A stretch of DNA of 15,472 nucleotides from a virus (taxonomy: Duplodnaviria > Heunggongvirae > Uroviricota > Caudoviricetes). Where the stretch lies: positions 1 through 15,472 of the IMG/VR virus record IMGVR_UViG_2703718837_000003; one strand, 5' to 3'. Position 1 is the first letter of the stretch; every line of letters starts with the position of its first letter. Positions 420 to 15,456 of the stretch are shown here, in pieces. Made by a program: the position numbers and the translations under genes. A model generated the notes under the pieces. It did no database searches. It saw nothing but the letters and a program-made list of their open reading frames with translations, and was not told the DNA's origin.

Positions 420-1010
420 ATGTCTCGAATTTATGCTTACTGTCGGGTATCAACTCTGGAACAGACAACCAAAAATCAACGTCGGGAAATCGAAAGTGCA
501 GGTTTTAACATCAAATCTCAGCAAATAATTGAAGAACAAATTAGCGGCTCAGCAGCAACCAGTGAGCGTCCTGGTTTTAACCAGTTGCTTGATCGACTGA
601 AAAGAGGTGATGCATTGATTGTCACAAAACTGGATCGCCTCGGTTGTAATCCAATGGATATCAGTAAAACGGTGGAACAACTGACCAAAGCAGGTATCAA
701 AGTGCATTGCTTAGCATTGGGGGGCGTTGACCTGACCAGTCCACCTGGAAAAATGATGATGCAAGTAATTTCAGCAGTCGCTGAATTTGAGCGAGACCTT
801 TTACTTGAGCGTACTCATTCAGGGATATTAAGAGCACGGGGCGCAGGAAAGCGATTTGGTCGCCCACCTGTGTTAAATGATGAACAAATACAGAGGGTAC
901 TAGAGCAAATTAAGTCAGGTATAAATATAAGTGACATTGCCCAAGAATTCAAAACCTCGCGGCAAACCATTTTAAGAGCTAAAGCAAAAAATCAGACACC
1001 TGATATATAA
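420..1010 (+). CDS. pinQ: Serine recombinase, Pin/Gin/Hin-family DNA invertase
   Basis: 196-aa [18 protein letters not shown]... with the resolvase/invertase N-terminal catalytic serine motif (YxRVST) and a C-terminal helix-turn-helix. Q versus R suffix is inferred from Qin-like synteny (cspI, cspB, cspF, hok). Confidence 0.9.
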
Positions 1011-1107
1011 AAATAATCTCGGTGTGAGATTCCTTACGTTTTCCAAGCCCCCCTTCCTAGCCTTAAATGGAAAGATACTTCTAATTATAGAATTTATATA
1101 TCTTACC

Positions 1108-1683
1108 CTACGGTAGGGCTGGCCATTCAATATCCGGTGCAGTTGATGTATCAACACGGTTCAGCAACACCCGATACTTTTTCCAGGCTTCCAGCAACAA
1201 GGTTTCTTCCTCCGTTGCGATCTCCAGATCCACAGCATCCTGAAGCGGCGCTATATGCTCACTGGCTACCTGCATCAGGCTGTTTTTTGTTTCTTCCGCC
1301 TCCCGGATCCGGAACAGTTTTTCTGCTTCCGTATCCTTCACCCAGGCTGTGCCGTTCCACTTCTGAAACTCCCCTTCCGGGGATAACCAGGTGACATTTT
1401 CCGGTAATGAGCCGAGTTCAGAAATAAATAACGCGTCGCCGGAAGCCACGTCATAAACCGTTTTACCCCGATGATCTTCAACGAGATGCCACGATGACTC
1501 ATCACTGTTGAAAACAGCCACGAAACCAGCCGGAATATCTGGCGGTGCAATATAGGTACTGTTTGCAGGCAGACCTGTATGAGGTGGAATATATGCGTCA
1601 CCGTCACCAATAAATTCATTAGTTCCGGACAACAGATTATAAATTTTTATGGTCCGTGCTTGTTCACTCATTCTGAATGCCAT
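1108..1683 (-). CDS. tfaQ: Tail fibre assembly protein Tfa (lambda tfa family)
   Basis: The C-terminal 191 aa of the long minus-strand ORF, starting [18 protein letters not shown]...[10 protein letters not shown], is near-identical to remembered lambda Tfa. ATG is at 1681-1683 (minus strand) and the stop at 1108-1110. Confidence 0.85.
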
Positions 1684-4600
1684 TATGCAAGCCTCACAAT
1701 ATAATGCGATGTTTTTGACGGTGTTTTCCGCGTTACCAGCAGCGTTAACGGTGATGGTGTGTCCATGTGAGCCAATCGCAACCGAGTGCGTATGCGCACC
1801 AATACCTACAGTATGTGCATGTGCGCCAGAACTTGCTGCAGTACCAGACAGCGAGTGGGTATGAGCACCTGCTGACTGTGTCTGAATACGTTGATAATAC
1901 GATCTACTGGAAGAAGTCCCCGGGCTTACTTGATACTGTGAATCCTGGACATAAGTGAACCCACCGCCATCATAAAATGCTAACGCAGAACCGCCGCCTC
2001 CTGGCCAACGAATACCATTACCGTGAGTATGAGCACCGGCAGACCCCGTAGAGCCACTCAGACTGTGCGTATGCGCCCCGGTGTTATTCGTGGATTTAGT
2101 GCCGTAATCAAACGACGATGTGGTTTTCGTCCCCAAATCCGTACTGGATGCGCTGGCGCTGTGGGTATGCGATTTAATGCCATCCTGTTCCTGAGACAAT
2201 ACGGCACGACCACTGGCGGGCTTGCCCTTAATCGTCCAGCCACGCATATCAGGGATCACGCCTGACGGATAAGCGGCTGCAAGTTTCGGGTAGGCAGATT
2301 TGTCAAAAGTCTGCCCCTGCATCAGGGCATAACCAGACGGAACGGTATCTGATGGCCACGGGATTGGTGCGCCGACTGGGTAGCTTTCTGGTGGAGGATT
2401 TTTCGAGGTATAAACTTCTGCCCAGTCTTCCTCAAAACCATAGCCATCTCTTGAGGAACGGTAGAACAGACCACCATTTCTGTAATGCGCCTTCATCTGC
2501 AGGGTCCGGCAACTTCCGACTCCGGTATAGAAGTTAACCAGAATATAGCTGTCGCCAGAGCGGGTGACATTGTAAGCGCCTGATTCGGCATTCCAGGGAA
2601 CGCCACCATCCGCATCGGCATATGTATCCGTTGCCCTTCTGGCAAAAGCAGCCACATGCGCGGCGGTTAAAGTAATATCTTTGGAACCATCAAACTCAAC
2701 ACCAGAAACCAGTCTTGGCGTTTGCAGCTTTGTTGCTGTTAATGCATTACCGTTCAGACTTGCGGACAGTTTGGTTCCAATAACCAGCTCGCCGGTTGCG
2801 TTATCAATAGCAAACGGTCTTAATGTATTCCAGCCACCATAAACATCACCTTGATTGGTAAGCAGCAGGTAAGTTTTAGCGCCATCATTACGCCATAATG
2901 CACCATACTCCCCACCTATCATTCGAATCTGATTACCACCACGCGCTACAATTTCGTCTGTGGCAAAAAGTTTTTTGCACGACAAGTTATCGTTAACGAT
3001 TAACGAATGAGACTCATAAAAACCACGCCCACTCTTAAAATCAAGGATAACGTCCGCCGCGATACATTCAGTCGCTGGATTTGTTGCCCCAAACTTATAG
3101 GTCGTATCATTAACAACGAGATCAGCACCAGGTGCGGATATTGACAGGCCATCTTCGATAAACGCAAAAACAGGGAAAGCAGCGCCATCAACATAGAACA
3201 CAGAGCGCAAATCATCGCCCTTATTACTCATCATTATTGAGTGGATGGCTCGTTCATTGTTTTGATATTGCCAGAACATTCCATAAGCATAACGCCCCCT
3301 GTCAGTCCAGCCACCAGGCATAACAAATCCGTTAAACTCGCAGTTATTCATCGGATCGCCTGCGATTCGCGTTGCCGTGGTGATAATGACCCTTGATGCC
3401 AGTTCGCTTACTGAGCCAGCAGAACGCATAACAACAACAGGGTAATATTTTCCAGATGTTGCACCTGCAGGAGCGTTAACCCGCACATAACGCATACCAC
3501 GCTTATCAGCAAAGTCTGTTTTACTGACCGCGTTAATGTTGTTCAGGAAGCGTCCCTTATCGGGTATATCAGCGCCGTTCTGGTTTTTCTGCAGACGTTT
3601 CTCTGCATTGTCATAGGCTGATTTTACTGCCTTTGGCGTTGCCGCCAGCGTTTCAGACGTACTGTTGGTCGCACTGCTGAGCTGTACTATCCCCTTTTTC
3701 GTCGTACTTGCATCCTCAAGCGCCACGGCGGATGCAATATCCTCTGCCCGTTTAGCTGCTGTCTCGGCGCGCGTTGCCGCGGATTCCGCCGTACTTTTGC
3801 TCTGAGCTGCCGCCGTCGCACTGCCAGCTGCCTCTGTCGCCTTCGTGGATGCCGTCGTGGCGCTGCTCTTCGCTGCTGACGCCTGTCTGGTCGCCTCATC
3901 TTTTGAAGCAGACGCCGATGATGCCGATGACGCCGCCGAACTGGCTGACGATGCGGCAGCCGTTTTTGAGGATTCTGCGCTGGTTTCCGACGCTTTCGCG
4001 TTCGTTTCGGATGTCTTCGCTGCGGAAGCAGAACTCGCTGCTGCGCTGGCCTGTTCAGTGGCTTCGCCAGCCTTCGTTGTGGCTGTTGAAGCAGACGATG
4101 CGGCACTTTCTGCCGACTTTCCGGCAGCGGTGGCACTGGCTGAGGCCTGCCCGGCACTTGTTGACGCGGCGCTGGCAGATGATGCAGCCGCTGTTTTTGA
4201 GTCTGCTGCTGCGGAGGCACTCTGTTCCGCTGCCGTCTCAGAAGACCTGGCGTTCGTCTCGGACGTTTTTGCCGCCTTCGCGGAATTTCCTGCCGCCGTT
4301 GCCGAGGAAGCTGCGCTACTGGCGCTCGAGGATGCGTTCGTTTCTGATGATTTCGCTGCCTCTTTTGAGGCCGCCGCATCCCGGGCTGAGGTGGCAGCTT
4401 CTGACGCTTTCGTGGTCGCGGTGGATGCAGAAGTGGCTGCTGATTGTTGTGATGCTGCGGCATTCGTTTCTGACTTTTTCGCCGCACCGGCACTGGTGGC
4501 CGCCGCGCTTTTTGAGGACTCTGCAGCGGCAGCACTTTTTTCCGCTTCAGTGGCCTTTGTTGATGCCGTTCCTGCGCTGGAAGACGCTGACTGATCCGGT

Positions 4601-5403
4601 TCATTACGGTAGCCGGTCATGGCATCCATAGCTGGCTGAAAATATTCACCGCAGTGCGGACATGGCCAGTACCAGCGGCGGCGGTCACCTCGATTGTAAA
4701 GGGAAAGAATACCAGTCGTCGGTGGCGCTTCATGAGGCGACTTACGTCGCCATTTGCTGTCGCAGATGTCACGTCCCGGCGAGCTCTCCACCAGAGTCAT
4801 CCCGGCGGACATAAATGTGGTGGTACGTTTTGAGGCCAGGGAGAAACCATCACCCTCGCTGTCGATATTCTCCGGAAAACGGTCGTAATCGGTTAAGGCG
4901 ACAAACCGGTAATCCGACGACGACATAATGTTGACCGAGGGCCAACCAATTTTAAGGAACGAGCCATCCCTGAACGTCTTATCATGGACATTATTGTCGT
5001 TACGACGTGGACTCATTCTTTTCTTTACCGCCGCACTGCTTCTGAACGTTCTGTCGAGGCGCTTTTTAGAATGCTCGCGGGCCTTATCTTCGGTCATCTG
5101 CACAACGAGCATGTCCGAAGGATCGCAAACGATGGTATAGACAATCCATCCATCGATCAGACCAATGGTCTTCCCTGTTCGCGCAGGACCAACAAAAATC
5201 ACCGCATCGTATTCACGCGATGCCAGGCAGTTCATGGGCTCAATGATGTAGGGTGTCAGTTCAGGATCCCATGGCACCGAGTTACCAGCCCCCTTGGGAA
5301 CACGCATGAATTTTTTAACAGCCTCCGAAATCGGCATGCGACGTGGTGGGGAAAATCCTGCCGATATGTCCCTTCCCAAATTTCGGGCTGATGAAAAACC
5401 CAT
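1684..5403 (-). CDS. Composite ORF: N-terminal ~270 aa of a lambda A-type large terminase fused in frame to a side tail fibre protein (StfR/StfQ-like) lacking its N-terminus
   Basis: The first ~270 aa carry a Walker-A-like VGPARTGKT and a CPHCGEY zinc-finger-like motif, as in lambda gpA. From ~aa 271 the sequence is Ser/Ala-rich repeats ([28 protein letters not shown]...) and the C-terminal domain (GAPIPWPSD..., GAHTHSLSG..., [21 protein letters not shown]) matches remembered lambda/K-12 Stf. A GGAGGA Shine-Dalgarno precedes the ATG at 5401-5403 and overlaps the stop of the upstream small-terminase gene. No stop separates this from tfa. Confidence 0.8.
3750..4595 (-). repeat. GC-rich low-complexity Ser/Ala/Thr-rich coding repeat inside the tail fibre gene
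   Basis: Reiterated motifs ([23 protein letters not shown]) in the Stf frame. The region lacks stop codons in several frames, producing the overlapping track ORFs 3687-4604(-), 3774-4631(+) and 3845-4594(+). Confidence 0.7.
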
Positions 5404-5411
5404 TATTCCTC

Positions 5412-5939
5412 CTAGAGACTCTCTCCTTCCTCATCAGGAATTAATTCAGCAGCACAAGCCTCGTAGGATTTTTCCTGAAGAGTGTATCGCAGGTCATCAA
5501 TGGCCTGCTGTACAACGCCGACGGCCTGAGGAGTCAGAGCGCAATCGCGTTCAAGAACATCCGGAATTGTCTCCAGAACCTGGACGACAGCCTTTCTCAT
5601 GGACGAATAGACGATGACTACTTCATCAACTGGGATGAGTTTTCGCTGCTCCTTTTCCAGCTTGATCCTTTCATTTTCAGACTGGTACCAGTCCTTTCTC
5701 TCTTTCGGCTCCATACGGGATGGATCATGAACAGAGTCTGCTGCCTCATGCTTCACACTAAACAGGGCGGGCCCGACATGCTGCAGGGCGTAAACGGGGT
5801 TCCCCCTGACAGTCGCAGCCACAGGAGTGTTGGCCGCGAGGAGCCGTTTTTTTACTGTGTCCCGGTGAAGCCCAAAGGCCTCGGCGATTTTAAAAACACT
5901 CCAGTAATAAGCATCACCGATCCCGCTCACATTTGACAT
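5412..5939 (-). CDS. Terminase small subunit (Nu1/NohA-like DNA-packaging protein)
   Basis: ~175-aa ORF immediately downstream of the cos-like site and immediately upstream of, and coupled to, the terminase large-subunit start. Preferred start is the second ATG (MSNVSGIGD...) with GGAG 7 nt upstream. Assignment is by position and architecture; the sequence is not a close lambda Nu1 match. Confidence 0.6.
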
Positions 5940-6114
5940 AAGCAACTCCATCTGGCAGGTGAAAATCAGGTTTATTTATATATTTCAATTAATTGCAAAC
6001 TGGTCTAATGACAGGAAGAAAAAAATATTGTACAGGTGAAAAGAGAAATAACTTTTAATTATCAATAAATTACCAAACATGCTGCCGCCGCCATGGAAAT
6101 GCAAAAACTAGCCT

Positions 6115-8217: not shown

Positions 8218-8419
8218 TTTTCACTTTTTTAAATCCAACGACAGACGGCTGGCATTTAAGTATTGTGAAATATTATCAAATGTAATCATCATTGATTTAC
8301 AAAAGATACATTTTGCCCCGAAAGGATTCATGTCAGAAACATCAAAAGATGATGTTCTATACTGGGAACCATGACAACACGGGCATCTAAAGTGAATATG
8401 GTTTGTAATATTGTCTACC

Positions 8420-8632
8420 TCAAAGCGCCACTACATGAACAGCGGCAGGACCTTTAGGTCCGTTCTCAATACCAAATTCAACTTCCTGATTCTCAGTTAA
8501 TGTTTTGAAATCGTTGCTCTGAATTGCTGAGAAATGGACAAACACATCTTTGCTGCCATCTTTCGGCGTGATGAAACCAAAACCTTTTTCAGGGTTAAAC
8601 CATTTCACTAAACCAGTCATTTTGTTAGACAT
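8420..8632 (-). CDS. cspI: Cold-shock protein CspI
   Basis: The 70-aa product [70 protein letters not shown] is a full cold-shock domain matching CspI. AAGG lies ~7 nt upstream of the ATG, as in csp genes. Confidence 0.95.
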
Positions 8633-8994
8633 AATTATTACCTTTTGAAGAAATTAGCCCTTGGGCAGAATGGTCCGAAAAAAAATATCAGAGAGAAAAA
8701 CCAACAAGGAAATCTCAAGAGGTACAAATAATAAAATTATAACAATGACTGCTTCAGATAAATTTGTAACAAACCAGAACACCATTAACGCATGATTAAC
8801 CACCCATAGCAAGGATTACTTTTGTAAAGAAAAACACAGCAATGAAAGAATAGCTTTATTTATTAATAAAACGTGTCATTCTGATTAAGACCTTTTATCT
8901 TACCCTTAAGATTTCAGGAATTTTGGCTCATGGAAGAGTCCTTTTTATTTAAATTTTACATTCCGCGATGTAAATGTTCCGATTTAATATTACC

Positions 8995-11022: not shown

Positions 11023-11302
11023 AGATTGTGGTGCTTTTTGTGGGAGTCATCCACTTACGCACTTTGTTTTGCCATGCCAGCAGTTAGCTTCTGCTGTAAA
11101 ACTATTCATGCAGCAAACCTGCACTTCACCACAATGGTTAGCATACTTTTCCTGATTAAGATTTTGCCAAATATGCTGGCCATTGTTTCATGTATTGGAC
11201 CTCCTTAATTTTTATTAAAGAAATCCAATATTCACTACTCTGTCCGTATCTCTACTCAGGCATCAGCCTTCTTCGTTATCGTATACAGACGAGCGATGAA
11301 TT

Positions 11303-11518
11303 TTAATCAGTAATGATGACATTTGCTGCTGCAGGACCTTTAGCACCACTCTCTATAGAGAAGGTAACCTTTTGACCTTCAAATAAGGTTCGATAATTAT
11401 CATTCTGAATCGCAGAAAAATGCACAAACACATCTTTACTACCATCAACAGGAGAAATAAAGCCGAAACCTTTATCAGCGTTAAACCATTTTACTAAACC
11501 AGTCATTTTATTTGACAT
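11303..11518 (-). CDS. cspB: Cold-shock protein CspB
   Basis: The 71-aa product [71 protein letters not shown] matches CspB. Confidence 0.95.
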
Positions 11519-11828
11519 TCTACATTCCTTAACTTGAGCCTTTCGGCATAAATGGTTTGCATAACAGAAACGACTTCGTACTTAATTGGAGAGACTCAAA
11601 GAAGGAATAAGTGAATAACACCTGAAATGAGAACTGCTTTAGTAAACTACTTCGTATATCGTCTGTTCTTCAAACCGACGCAGTCATTAACTCATAGTTG
11701 AACATATGAAGCAATGTTTATTTTAGACATCCAGCCACCTTCAATCCTATCAAAAAAGTAGTTTTCTCCAGGAACGTGTGTATGGTGCACCAGGTTATCA
11801 GTATTAAGGAGTTTTTCTGTCCCCTAAA

Positions 11829-14823: not shown

Positions 14824-14979
14824 TTACTCCTCAGGTTCGTAAGCTGTGAAGACAGCGACCTCCGTCTGGCCGGTTCGGATTCGTACCTCGCAGAGGTCTT
14901 TCCTCGTTACCAGTGCCGTCACTATGACGGTTAAACAGATGACGATCAGGGCGATTAACATCGCCTTTTGCTGCTTCAT
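14824..14979 (-). CDS. hokD: Hok-family membrane toxin (type I toxin)
   Basis: MKQQKAMLIALIVICLTVIVTALVTRKDLCEVRIRTGQTEVAVFTAYEPEE (51 aa) matches the Hok/Gef family. A perfect 9-bp hairpin (GGCGAGGGA-TTTC-TCCCTCGCC, 14794-14816) follows the stop. Confidence 0.85.
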   Translation of the reverse strand: MKQQKAMLIALIVICLTVIVTALVTRKDLCEVRIRTGQTEVAVFTAYEPEE

Positions 14980-15036
14980 AGCCTGCTTCTCCTTGCCTTT
15001 CGGCACGTAAGAGGCTAACCTACATGTGTCTAGCAT
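14824..15036 (-). CDS. Mok-like overlapping reading frame (in-frame N-terminal extension of hok)
   Basis: The 70-aa frame MLDTCRLASYVPKGKEKQAMKQQ... resembles chromosomal Mok proteins (MokC-like N-terminus, from memory). Confidence 0.45.
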   Translation of the reverse strand: MLDTCRLASYVPKGKEKQAMKQQKAMLIALIVICLTVIVTALVTRKDLCEVRIRTGQTEVAVFTAYEPEE

Positions 15037-15456
15037 GAAATTGGCCTCAGATTAATGTTAAGCGTCTTGCAGGACGCGTAATGTTAACTGGGGCTTTTCT
15101 CTATCTGCCTTTGGTGTTCATGCCCGAGGCAGATAGCCTCAAGCACCCACAGCCATTCTACTTAACTACCGTTACCTCGCCAATATGAAATCAGTCAGAA
15201 AGGCGATCCATAAGAACAATAGCAAGACAATAAATCGCCATTACAGCCGTAATAGCCAGCGCACATTTGAGAACCAGCACCACAACCTCCTGTATTGGAC
15301 GTAGACCAGTCCTGATGAATATGAGGCTGTCTCGTCAGTGATTCAATACAACTATTGGGTATAGTTTCTCTGATTTTTTCTGTGGAAATGGGGCACAACC
15401 ACTAGTCACCACCAGCACTTCTTTTAATACGCAAAGTCCGACACAAGCTAACCTTC

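Follow-up and report, generated by a model that had tools for sequence, protein, structure and literature searches.

A 5-bp deletion runs a truncated tail-fibre gene into tfa in a Qin-type cryptic prophage of E. coli: a probable case of private gene decay

The window, by which we mean the whole stretch of 15,472 nucleotides analysed here, is the entire 15.5-kb contig LONZ01000065.1 of a draft E. coli assembly (GCA_001575355.1). The contig's gene calls include lysis, cold-shock, hok/sok, antiterminator, DUF1441 and pin genes, and no capsid/head or tail genes are among the genes called over its 15.5 kb. When the gene list is compared with K-12 Qin and with the Qin-type prophages of D72, ET358 and PSS-08-1, the order ydfK-pinQ-tfaQ-stfQ-packaging remnant ... 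gnsB-ynfN-cspI-rzpQ-rrrQ is found, again with no virion genes, and the ydfK-pinQ synteny is that of K-12 Qin and other Qin-type prophages. The window is thus a Qin-type cryptic lambdoid prophage of E. coli from which the head-and-tail block has been deleted; in sister strains the Qin-type locus has undergone other terminase-to-tail deletions of independent origin.

At one end of the region of interest lies a DUF1441 gene (5412..5951, minus strand; Pfam DUF1441, E=1.7e-44), placed where a small terminase subunit would lie and in the same gene order as in E14, ET358 and PSS-08-1. Its stop is 8 nt 5' of the ATG of the chimeric open reading frame described below. At the other end, convergent with tfa, is a pinQ-type serine DNA invertase (420..1010, plus strand; Pfam Resolvase and HTH_7; PGAP homologue label pinQ). 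An invertible tail-fibre switch of the Pin/Gin/Hin kind was considered and rejected: the invertase is there, but an inverted-repeat search of the window for a partner recombination site gave only weak, chance-like pairs, and neither the window ORFs nor the contig gene calls include a second fibre/tfa set. Between positions 900 and 6600 there are 5 promoter-like sites (5.8 in shuffled sequence) and 10 terminator-like sites (5.6 in shuffled sequence, sd 2.3), numbers near enough to the shuffled ones to carry no information on expression.

Closer inspection of the region between these genes reveals a single reading frame of 1431 codons and 150.5 kDa (1108..5403), in which a terminase fragment, a fibre remnant, a 7-residue linker and Tfa follow one another. 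The feature lies on the minus strand, which corrects the sequence-only reading; that reading had also overlooked the start of the frame, some 270 codons of terminase large subunit, and its expectation of a Stf-Tfa product of ~125 kDa must be revised to the above mass, the Stf and Tfa portion by itself weighing in at a calculated 120 kDa. The full list of Pfam domains for the ORF consists of GpA_ATPase (residues 40-274), Gp34_trimer (767-866), Collar (1011-1058), Phage_fiber and Caudo_TAP (1312-1431). In RefSeq the protein is WP_432763956.1, 'phage terminase large subunit family protein', a label that hides three gene remnants and should serve as a warning to annotators.

The N-terminal ~270 codons (4593..5403, minus strand) belong to a gpA-type terminase large subunit: nucleotides 1-811 of the ORF correspond, at 99.9% identity, to the equally numbered nucleotides of the terminase gene of E. 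coli E14, which is intact and 2100 nt long. The GpA_ATPase match (E=1.1e-72) ends at profile position 223 of 247, so the ATPase domain is cut short, and Pfam finds no GpA_nuclease match in the ORF, meaning that the terminase nuclease domain is missing; a complete gpA-type terminase would have ~700 aa and both domains. At 4593..4598 (minus strand), where the BLAST segments overlap at ORF nucleotides 806-811, terminase codon ~270 is joined in frame to Stf codon ~165-167. With the three sequences side by side, the microhomology at this apparently older deletion junction is strictly TC, or 6 nt if one mismatch is allowed, and the junction is contiguous in no complete E. coli genome searched.

The Stf remnant that follows (1705..4592, minus strand) represents residues ~167-1129 of the 1137-aa Stf of strain D72, whose Qin-type prophage is more complete. 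The match to D72 Stf begins only at nucleotide 494 (codon ~165), with terminase sequence upstream, and over its length the remnant is 98.8% identical to D72 stf at the nucleotide level, the sole gap being a 5-bp deletion; it is open across 970 codons and differs from D72 at 25 synonymous and 12 non-synonymous codons. The first ~165 Stf residues are missing, including what PGAP names the 'prophage tail fiber N-terminal domain' in intact homologues, and Pfam identifies no N-terminal tail-fibre domain in the ORF. The gp37-like receptor-binding tip with its HxH motifs is retained together with the Collar domain; the tip matches the T4 gp37 tip (PDB 2XGF) with E=2.5e-77 over 229 residues, in an alignment that stops at NIA|F.

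The last segment is a complete tfa of 191 codons plus stop (1108..1683, minus strand), readable either alone from its own ATG or as the tail of the chimera. On the 3' side of the deletion D72 tfaQ is matched at 589 of 589 nucleotides, and all 191 codons agree with D72 TfaQ; the Caudo_TAP match (PF02413, E=8.7e-43) covers profile positions 1-130 of 131. Tfa in the window is therefore full length (~190 aa) and has a ribosome-binding site and start codon of its own; the C-terminal part of the protein matches Tfa (U) of phage Mu (PDB 5YVQ). The whole-ORF Pfam scan detected no cleavage or peptidase S74-type domain.

How the fibre frame enters tfa can be read from the junction, GCATTATATTGTGAGGCTTGCATAATGGCATTC, which occurs once in the window (1675-1707, minus strand). 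Translation of 1108..5403 (minus strand) bears out the read-through described from the sequence alone: the stf frame enters tfa with no intervening stop, and the tfa methionine of MAFRMSEQ (1683..1681, minus strand) becomes residue 1241 of the ORF. We aligned the junction with those of lambda, K-12 Qin, K-12 Rac, D72, ET358 and phage Turner (alignment A1). The junction reads GCATTTAACTATATTGTGAGGCTTGCATAATGGC in lambda, in five other phages, in K-12 Qin (stfQ/tfaQ) and in K-12 Rac (stfR/tfaR), and likewise in the Qin-type prophages of D72 and ET358, the latter with one base changed (..CTACATT..). In all comparators the TAA that closes stf overlaps the tfa ATG as TAATG and the conserved Stf end NIAFNYIVRLA-stop, absent from the window, is present, and the lambda sequence bears out both as the sequence-only reading gives them for that phage. 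All intact phages examined keep stf and tfa as two genes, so the contiguous frame is not a normal gene end that the window shares with intact relatives.

By both alignment A1 and the six-phage junction strings, the window is 5 bases shorter at this point than every comparator, which agrees with the small frame-shifting deletion proposed earlier. The lost bases are TTAAC or TAACT (one-T placement ambiguity), 19-23 nt upstream of the tfa ATG, and a new TTA (Leu) codon at 1702..1704 (minus strand) spans the site. The deletion has two effects: it moves the stf frame by +2, and it removes the TAA that otherwise closes the tfa frame upstream, the wild-type tfa frame being T-TAA-CTA-TAT-TGT-GAG-GCT-TGC-ATA-ATG. 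As a result, FNYIVRLA-stop is replaced by seven new codons, LYCEACI (1684..1704, minus strand), which belong to the stretch of the tfa frame that precedes its ATG. The tfa Shine-Dalgarno GAGG (1692..1695, minus strand; 8 nt 5' of the ATG and an invariant column in A1) and the ATG itself are unaffected. As the feature is one specific mutation, chance is not at issue.

In the collections searched, the allele is confined to this contig. With 96-nt and 55-nt queries it was found in none of 5,809 junction copies from 3,437 complete E. coli genomes, a variable-gap pattern recovered it in none of 30 matching stretches from species-representative genomes, and it was found neither in IMG/VR nor, with two patterns, in metagenome contigs. 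Among the 158 junction copies of the retrieved loci, 157 have the wild-type 6-nt insert (TTAACT in 152, TTAATT in 5), and the sole short junction is that of the window's own contig. Complete E. coli genomes have a median of 1 and up to 6 stf-tfa junction places. In the finished genome of strain LR-50, a separate 1-bp deletion falls in the same place and is flagged as frameshifted by PGAP.

Protein databases give the same picture. Exact look-up records the 1431-aa protein from one contig only, and the other members listed in its 90% cluster are Tfa proteins of 184-194 aa. Among the matches listed by HMMER against 1.84 billion cluster representatives, none is an E. coli-type Stf-Tfa spanning this junction; the Stf matches break off 7 residues short of their own C-terminus, and those to free-standing Tfa proteins begin at residue 1. 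A word-indexed set of 5.8 billion proteins, taken together with HMMER, yields natural E. coli-type Stf-Tfa fusions only as singleton chimeras. Many other E. coli proteins, each the sole member of its cluster, join a prophage piece (Nu1, ClpP, Lom, J, TerL-J or Stf) to Tfa, and sequence databases contain many one-off chimeras that end in Tfa.

An orphan fibre-Tfa gene is also present in Photorhabdus (CAE14316.1 in P. laumondii TTO1, EYU15089.1 in P. aegyptia). Like the window, it has a Collar-domain fibre running into Caudo_TAP after an indel at the TAATG overlap, at a locus without tail genes. The indel is a different one, a 7-bp tandem duplication (GCAGCAT) that adds a 4-residue linker and keeps the fibre end NIAFNYIVRAA whole, whereas FNYIVRLA is destroyed in the window. 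The Photorhabdus fusion occurs in 11 sequence variants of 90-99% identity, with the 491-493-aa frame intact in all, and is therefore fixed in its lineage, in contrast to the private allele of the window. It is the only hint of persistence, and a better subject for asking whether Tfa works in cis.

Taken together, these observations make it highly probable that the window carries a private decay lesion, in which two deletions have produced a terminase-Stf-Tfa pseudogene chimera in a cryptic prophage. The whole head-and-tail block would have been lost from a Qin-type cryptic lambdoid prophage, an earlier deletion joining terminase large subunit codon ~270 in frame to stf codon ~165. A later and very recent 5-bp deletion would then have shifted the stf frame by +2 into that of tfa and taken out the upstream TAA, so that the stf remnant could be read via LYCEACI into full-length tfa, giving the 1431-codon chimera. 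That the 5-bp deletion came second is what we infer; its recency is argued from the complete identity of the tfa nucleotides to D72 tfaQ. If the region is transcribed, the 150-kDa chimera could be translated, and internal initiation could also yield ordinary free 21-kDa Tfa, since the deletion has spared the Shine-Dalgarno and ATG of tfa. The chimera itself is presumably non-functional: with the N-terminal domain part of Stf gone, no tail to join and the conserved C-terminal 8 residues lost, a fibre function is implausible. Of the two outcomes put forward by the sequence-only reading, decay in a dead prophage is accordingly the one favoured by the lack of virion genes, the truncated Stf and the unique allele. 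Against it, a stf remnant open over so many codons, with mostly synonymous differences from D72, would fit selection, though the same pattern is equally expected from allelic variation inherited from functional phages.

Less likely than decay is that the 5-bp deletion arose as an artefact when a draft of short contigs was sequenced or assembled, and that the true genome has a normal TAATG. Among the sequences searched, only a single 15.5-kb contig from a single draft assembly shows the allele, and E. coli genomes commonly carry several near-identical stf-tfa copies, which can confuse assemblers. However, the deletion site, GCATTTAACTATATTG, is neither a homopolymer nor a simple repeat in alignment A1, so the usual modes of indel error do not apply; collapse of paralogues would leave mixed bases rather than a clean loss of 5 bp; the flanks match D72 perfectly; and the real 1-bp deletion in finished LR-50 demonstrates that indels do arise here. 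We therefore regard an artefact as unlikely.

Much harder to sustain is the idea that the read-through encodes a working covalent fibre-chaperone, kept by the host, with Tfa as a built-in folding domain or extra adhesin. In its favour, Tfa is complete, the gp37-like tip is otherwise intact, Mu Tfa remains on the fibre tip and other fibres have C-terminal intramolecular chaperones (PMC10579305), and a fibre-Tfa fusion is maintained in Photorhabdus; the tip-bound Mu Tfa (PMC10579305) and the intact Photorhabdus fusion mean, as a point against simple decay, that covalent fusion is not impossible in principle. Set against this, the N-terminus is a terminase fragment that has displaced the N-terminal ~165 residues of Stf, head and tail genes are absent from the contig, the allele is confined to that contig, and the last 8 Stf residues, FNYIVRLA, conserved and common to T4 gp37, have been replaced, where Photorhabdus keeps FNYIVRAA; nor did Pfam detect a cleavage or peptidase S74-type domain. 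For the first four of these reasons, the earlier suggestion that a fibre covalently joined to its assembly chaperone is the product of interest is unsupported. It is likewise very improbable that Tfa, acting in cis, lets the Stf-Tfa portion fold as a stable trimer that binds a receptor. On that view, at which the lineage-fixed Photorhabdus fusion hints, covalent fibre-Tfa fusions would be a recurrent and tolerated condition, retained at times by bacteria from remnants of prophages, and the window allele would be a young example of such a route and not pure decay.

A regulated recoding site or phase-variable switch between separate and fused Stf and Tfa, to which the two independent indels within a few bases of each other in the window and LR-50 might point, is scarcely credible and can be set aside, as alignment A1 shows neither a repeat tract nor a slippery sequence there, 157 of 158 junction copies are wild type, as are all best matches in thousands of genomes, and the pin invertase has no partner site in the window.

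The window allele thus looks like ordinary gene decay and not like a novel type of fibre; it is a further private lesion of a cryptic prophage and has little significance of its own. What it illustrates, modestly, is a consequence of the TAATG overlap between stf and tfa: fibre and chaperone can be welded together by a small indel within the final ~24 nt of stf.

Comparison with known systems places this lesion in context. Fibres and spikes with a C-terminal intramolecular chaperone in one polypeptide include T5 pb1 and the K1F endosialidase, and chaperones of the Tfa family can remain attached at the tip of the fibre, as in phage Mu (PMC10579305). The T5 pb1 and K1F chaperone domains are of another family, autoproteolytically removed and conserved in working phages, whereas the fusion in the window is a frameshift accident in which Pfam identifies no autoproteolytic chaperone domain. 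In T4, gp37 residues 785-1026 align with the last ~230 residues of Stf, including the repeated HxH motifs. Folding of T4 gp37 is aided by gp38/gp57 or by lambda Tfa. The Stf C-terminus whose last 8 residues are replaced here is nearly identical in T4 gp37, which ends in NIAF and 7 further residues; in the window the match ends at NIA, followed by LYCEACI and Tfa.

Lambda stf (orf-401/orf-314) and tfa (orf-194) are ~92% identical in nucleotide sequence over the matching stf 3' end and tfa, and the lambda junction is that of the window bar one base and the missing 5 bp, with Shine-Dalgarno and ATG shared. In lambda the two are separate genes inside a complete tail-gene block. In laboratory lambda, an unrelated frameshift has divided stf between orf-401 and orf-314 (two CDSs in the record); the HK630 record notes 'missing C relative to Ur-lambda'.

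The closest counterpart is K-12 Qin, where stfQ-tfaQ-pinQ (b1547, b1546, b1545) occupy the same ydfK-side locus in the same order, with pin convergent on tfa. In Qin and Rac (stfR-tfaR-pinR), as in the window, deletion of the head and tail genes has left a 5'-truncated stf next to the remnant of a DNA-packaging gene, and the DNA flanking the junction is nearly identical in all three. The end-points of these deletions differ, the packaging remnant being nohA (Nu1-type) in K-12 and DUF1441 plus a gpA fragment in the window. K-12 keeps TAATG, with stfQ (320 aa) and tfaQ (191 aa) as separate genes, and to this arrangement the window adds its private 5-bp deletion.

The longest open reading frame of the window (1108..5403, minus strand, 1431 codons) translates without a stop across the junction between the side tail-fibre gene, stf, and the gene for its assembly chaperone, tfa, so the read-through proposed in the sequence-only reading is real. 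The junction string quoted there stands as written, occurring once, at 1675-1707, but its strand is minus; the tfa start (the Met of MAFRMSEQ) is residue 1241 of the frame, at 1683..1681 (-). We compared this junction with those of phages lambda, 204576, ECO111 5-P, Turner, ev099 and SPF_0923, and with those of K-12 Qin (stfQ/tfaQ), K-12 Rac (stfR/tfaR) and the Qin-type prophages of E. coli strains D72 and ET358. Every comparator reads GCATTTAACTATATTGTGAGGCTTGCATAATGGC, ET358 differing by one base. The sequence-only reading was right on lambda, where ...NIAFNYIVRLA is followed by a TAA that closes stf and overlaps the tfa ATG as TAATG, an arrangement found in all comparators. Alignment bears out the suspected frame-shifting deletion: the window shows a 5-bp gap (GCAT-----TATATTG...), the lost bases being TTAAC or TAACT, with a one-T ambiguity of placement. 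Since the tfa frame is +2 relative to stf, this loss takes stf into the tfa frame. The wild-type tfa frame 5' of the ATG reads T-TAA-CTA-TAT-TGT-GAG-GCT-TGC-ATA-ATG and has a TAA stop eight codons ahead of the ATG; that TAA is within the deleted bases, so that one deletion is enough to change the frame and to clear the way into tfa. A fusion of this kind can arise only from indels in the final ~24 nt of stf. Neither the tfa ribosome-binding site (GAGG, 1695..1692, minus strand), which lies 8 nt from the ATG, nor the start codon is affected. On the opposite strand the deletion converts TATAGT to a perfect TATAAT hexamer (1700-1705, plus strand) within the region's best promoter-like match (10/12); this is probably meaningless, because promoter-like sites are no more numerous than in shuffled sequence.

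The fusion extends further upstream than had been noticed. Pfam places a terminase large-subunit ATPase domain at ORF residues 40-274, Gp34_trimer at 767-866, Collar at 1011-1058 and Caudo_TAP, the chaperone, at 1312-1431, together with a fibre repeat (all minus strand). The first 811 nt of the ORF share 99.9% identity with nt 1-811 of the terminase gene of strain E14, which is intact and 2100 nt long, and from nt 806 to 4296 the ORF agrees at 98.8% identity with nt 494-3989 of stf+tfaQ in the more complete prophage of D72, the sole gap being the 5-bp deletion. The segments join in frame at 4593-4598 (-), with a microhomology of TC, or of 6 nt with one mismatch, placing ~270 gpA-type terminase codons onto Stf at codon ~165. 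The layout is TerL(1-~270)::Stf(~167-1129 of 1137)::LYCEACI::Tfa(1-191), 150.5 kDa in total; the earlier estimate of ~125 kDa is near the 120 kDa of truncated Stf plus Tfa alone but leaves out the terminase piece. The TerL::Stf junction is contiguous in 0 of 5,426 complete E. coli genomes. We infer that it is older than the 5-bp deletion, and the deletion behind it took out all head and tail genes. The final ~230 residues of Stf match the T4 gp37 tip (PDB 2XGF, E=2.5e-77), and this alignment halts at NIA|F, 7 residues before the gp37 C-terminus, exactly where the frameshift starts. Rfam IS009 (RF02111) also matches at full length (221.7 bits, 1142-1340, minus strand), wholly within the 3' half of tfa, so this catalogued 'small RNA' is here prophage tfa coding sequence.

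The window is the entire contig LONZ01000065.1 (15,472 bp) of E. coli assembly GCA_001575355.1. Genes called on it are hok/sok, rem, a DUF968 gene, a Q-type antiterminator, cold-shock genes, holin, lysozyme, Rz, gnsB, a DUF1398 gene, a DUF1441 gene, the chimeric ORF and a Pin-type invertase; none is a capsid or tail gene. Gene order and flanks fit the K-12 Qin cryptic prophage (ydfK-pinQ-tfaQ-stfQ-nohA ... gnsB-cspI-rzpQ-rrrQ) and Qin-type elements of other strains. Sister strains carry independent terminase-to-tail deletions with differing end-points: a terminase remnant adjoins a J/tail-protein remnant in ET358 and PSS-08-1, and an intact terminase adjoins a Lom remnant in E14, while D72 retains J, Lom and full Stf. 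The pinQ-type serine invertase is intact (420-1010, plus strand, with the adjoining 1011-1107). With no second fibre/tfa cassette on the contig and no convincing inverted-repeat partner, this orphan invertase has no obvious segment to act on within the contig. Two cspA-type thermoregulator leaders ahead of the cold-shock genes (8393-8778 and 11287-11679, minus strand) and a sok antitoxin RNA beside hok (14974-15148, minus strand), all gathering-level Rfam matches, are usual Qin-type cargo.

How widespread is the deletion? A 55-nt query centred on it matched 5,809 places in 3,437 complete E. coli genomes, none of them reaching 95% identity, the best full-length matches spanning 59-60 genomic bases; a 96-nt query gave the same outcome in complete E. 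coli genomes. A variable-gap scan covering 185,579 species, each represented by one genome, matched 30 stretches, 30/30 of wild-type length, IMG/VR held at least 119 wild-type junctions and 0 with the deletion, and two exact patterns for it matched no metagenome contig. Among retrieved loci, the 6-nt wild-type insert is present in 157 junction copies and the sole short copy is the window's own contig, the only one from which the 1431-aa protein is recorded. Because tfa downstream is identical to D72 tfaQ (589/589 nt) and the allele is absent elsewhere, the comparison suggests a very recent lesion. In the species scan, exact lambda-type junctions also appeared in assemblies assigned to Chromatiales, Bradyrhizobium, Streptomyces, Enterococcus, Paenibacillus, Shewanella and Pseudomonas, among others. 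Many of these copies sit on short contigs of low coverage, and they look like contamination by lambda/E. coli DNA and not real gene content.

Fusions to Tfa do occur elsewhere. When a 340-aa junction-spanning query was run against 1.84 billion cluster representatives, the matches listed cover one half or the other: Stf matches end 7 residues ahead of their own C-terminus, free-standing Tfa matches begin at residue 1, and longer proteins carry Tfa C-terminally. E. coli has many such proteins: Nu1::Tfa, ClpP::Tfa, Lom::Tfa, J::Tfa and TerL::J::Tfa, and several Stf::Tfa proteins with differing joints. All those checked stand alone in their clusters, and they look like deletion scars. Many one-off proteins in E. 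coli and viral-metagenome data likewise carry the C-terminal part of Tfa behind an unrelated piece of prophage (Nu1, ClpP protease, terminase, Lom, J, minor tail Z), which suggests that deletions in lambdoid prophage remnants often leave tfa as the edge that survives. Strain LR-50 (NZ_AP025551.1; L166 ~1535-1545) has a separate 1-bp deletion (TTTAA-TAT) in the same few bases of a Rac-type stf/tfaR junction; it makes no fusion because the shift goes to the other frame, and PGAP labels the gene a frameshifted phage tail protein.

The sole exception to these one-off fusions is a 491-493-aa Photorhabdus protein (CAE14316.1, EYU15089.1 and others; ...NIAFNYIVRAA-AC(S/G)I-MTEQ...), comprising a fibre with complete C-terminus, a 4-residue linker and full Tfa. 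The 493-aa form of P. laumondii TTO1 (...NIAFNYIVRAA-ACSI-MTEQ...) lies at BX470251.1 2392707-2394188 (L162 8001-9482; also in loci L161 and L163), with a 7-bp tandem duplication of GCAGCAT where the TAATG overlap would be. Two neighbouring fibre genes end normally (NIAFNYIVRAA-stop), the upstream one, whose DNA was read, with the usual GCGGCGTAATG overlap at the stop. The frame is open in 11/11 variants (90-99% identity), and the locus is an orphan set of three Collar-domain genes near uvrC, where no tail genes are found. A fibre-Tfa fusion can thus persist in a lineage, and selection may maintain this one; its conserved fibre end is retained, unlike in the window's allele, where that end is destroyed.

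We therefore regard the 5-bp deletion as very probably a decay lesion, recent and private, of a prophage that had already been gutted; its product, if any, would be a non-functional chimera, with free Tfa still makeable from its own start. This was the fallback of the sequence-only reading, and the private allele and lack of capsid and tail genes favour it. An assembly or sequencing artefact is unlikely, as the site has no homopolymer or repeat and is not error-prone. Much less probable is a working covalent fibre-chaperone protein, the other reading offered: Tfa proteins can remain at fibre tips and other fibres have in-cis chaperones (PMC10579305), but here the N-terminal ~165 residues and conserved C-terminus of Stf are lost, tail genes are absent from the contig and the allele is unique; in every intact phage examined the two genes are separate. 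Phase variation or recoding is scarcely credible at a site with no repeat, slippery motif or invertible segment.

RefSeq lists the chimera as a 'phage terminase large subunit family protein', a lesson for annotation. The event is a fresh instance of indel and deletion scars creating chimeric ORFs in cryptic prophages, not a novel fibre type; the region is a Qin-type cryptic prophage's stfQ-tfaQ-pinQ end, and its characterised homologues are lambda stf/tfa and T4 gp37.
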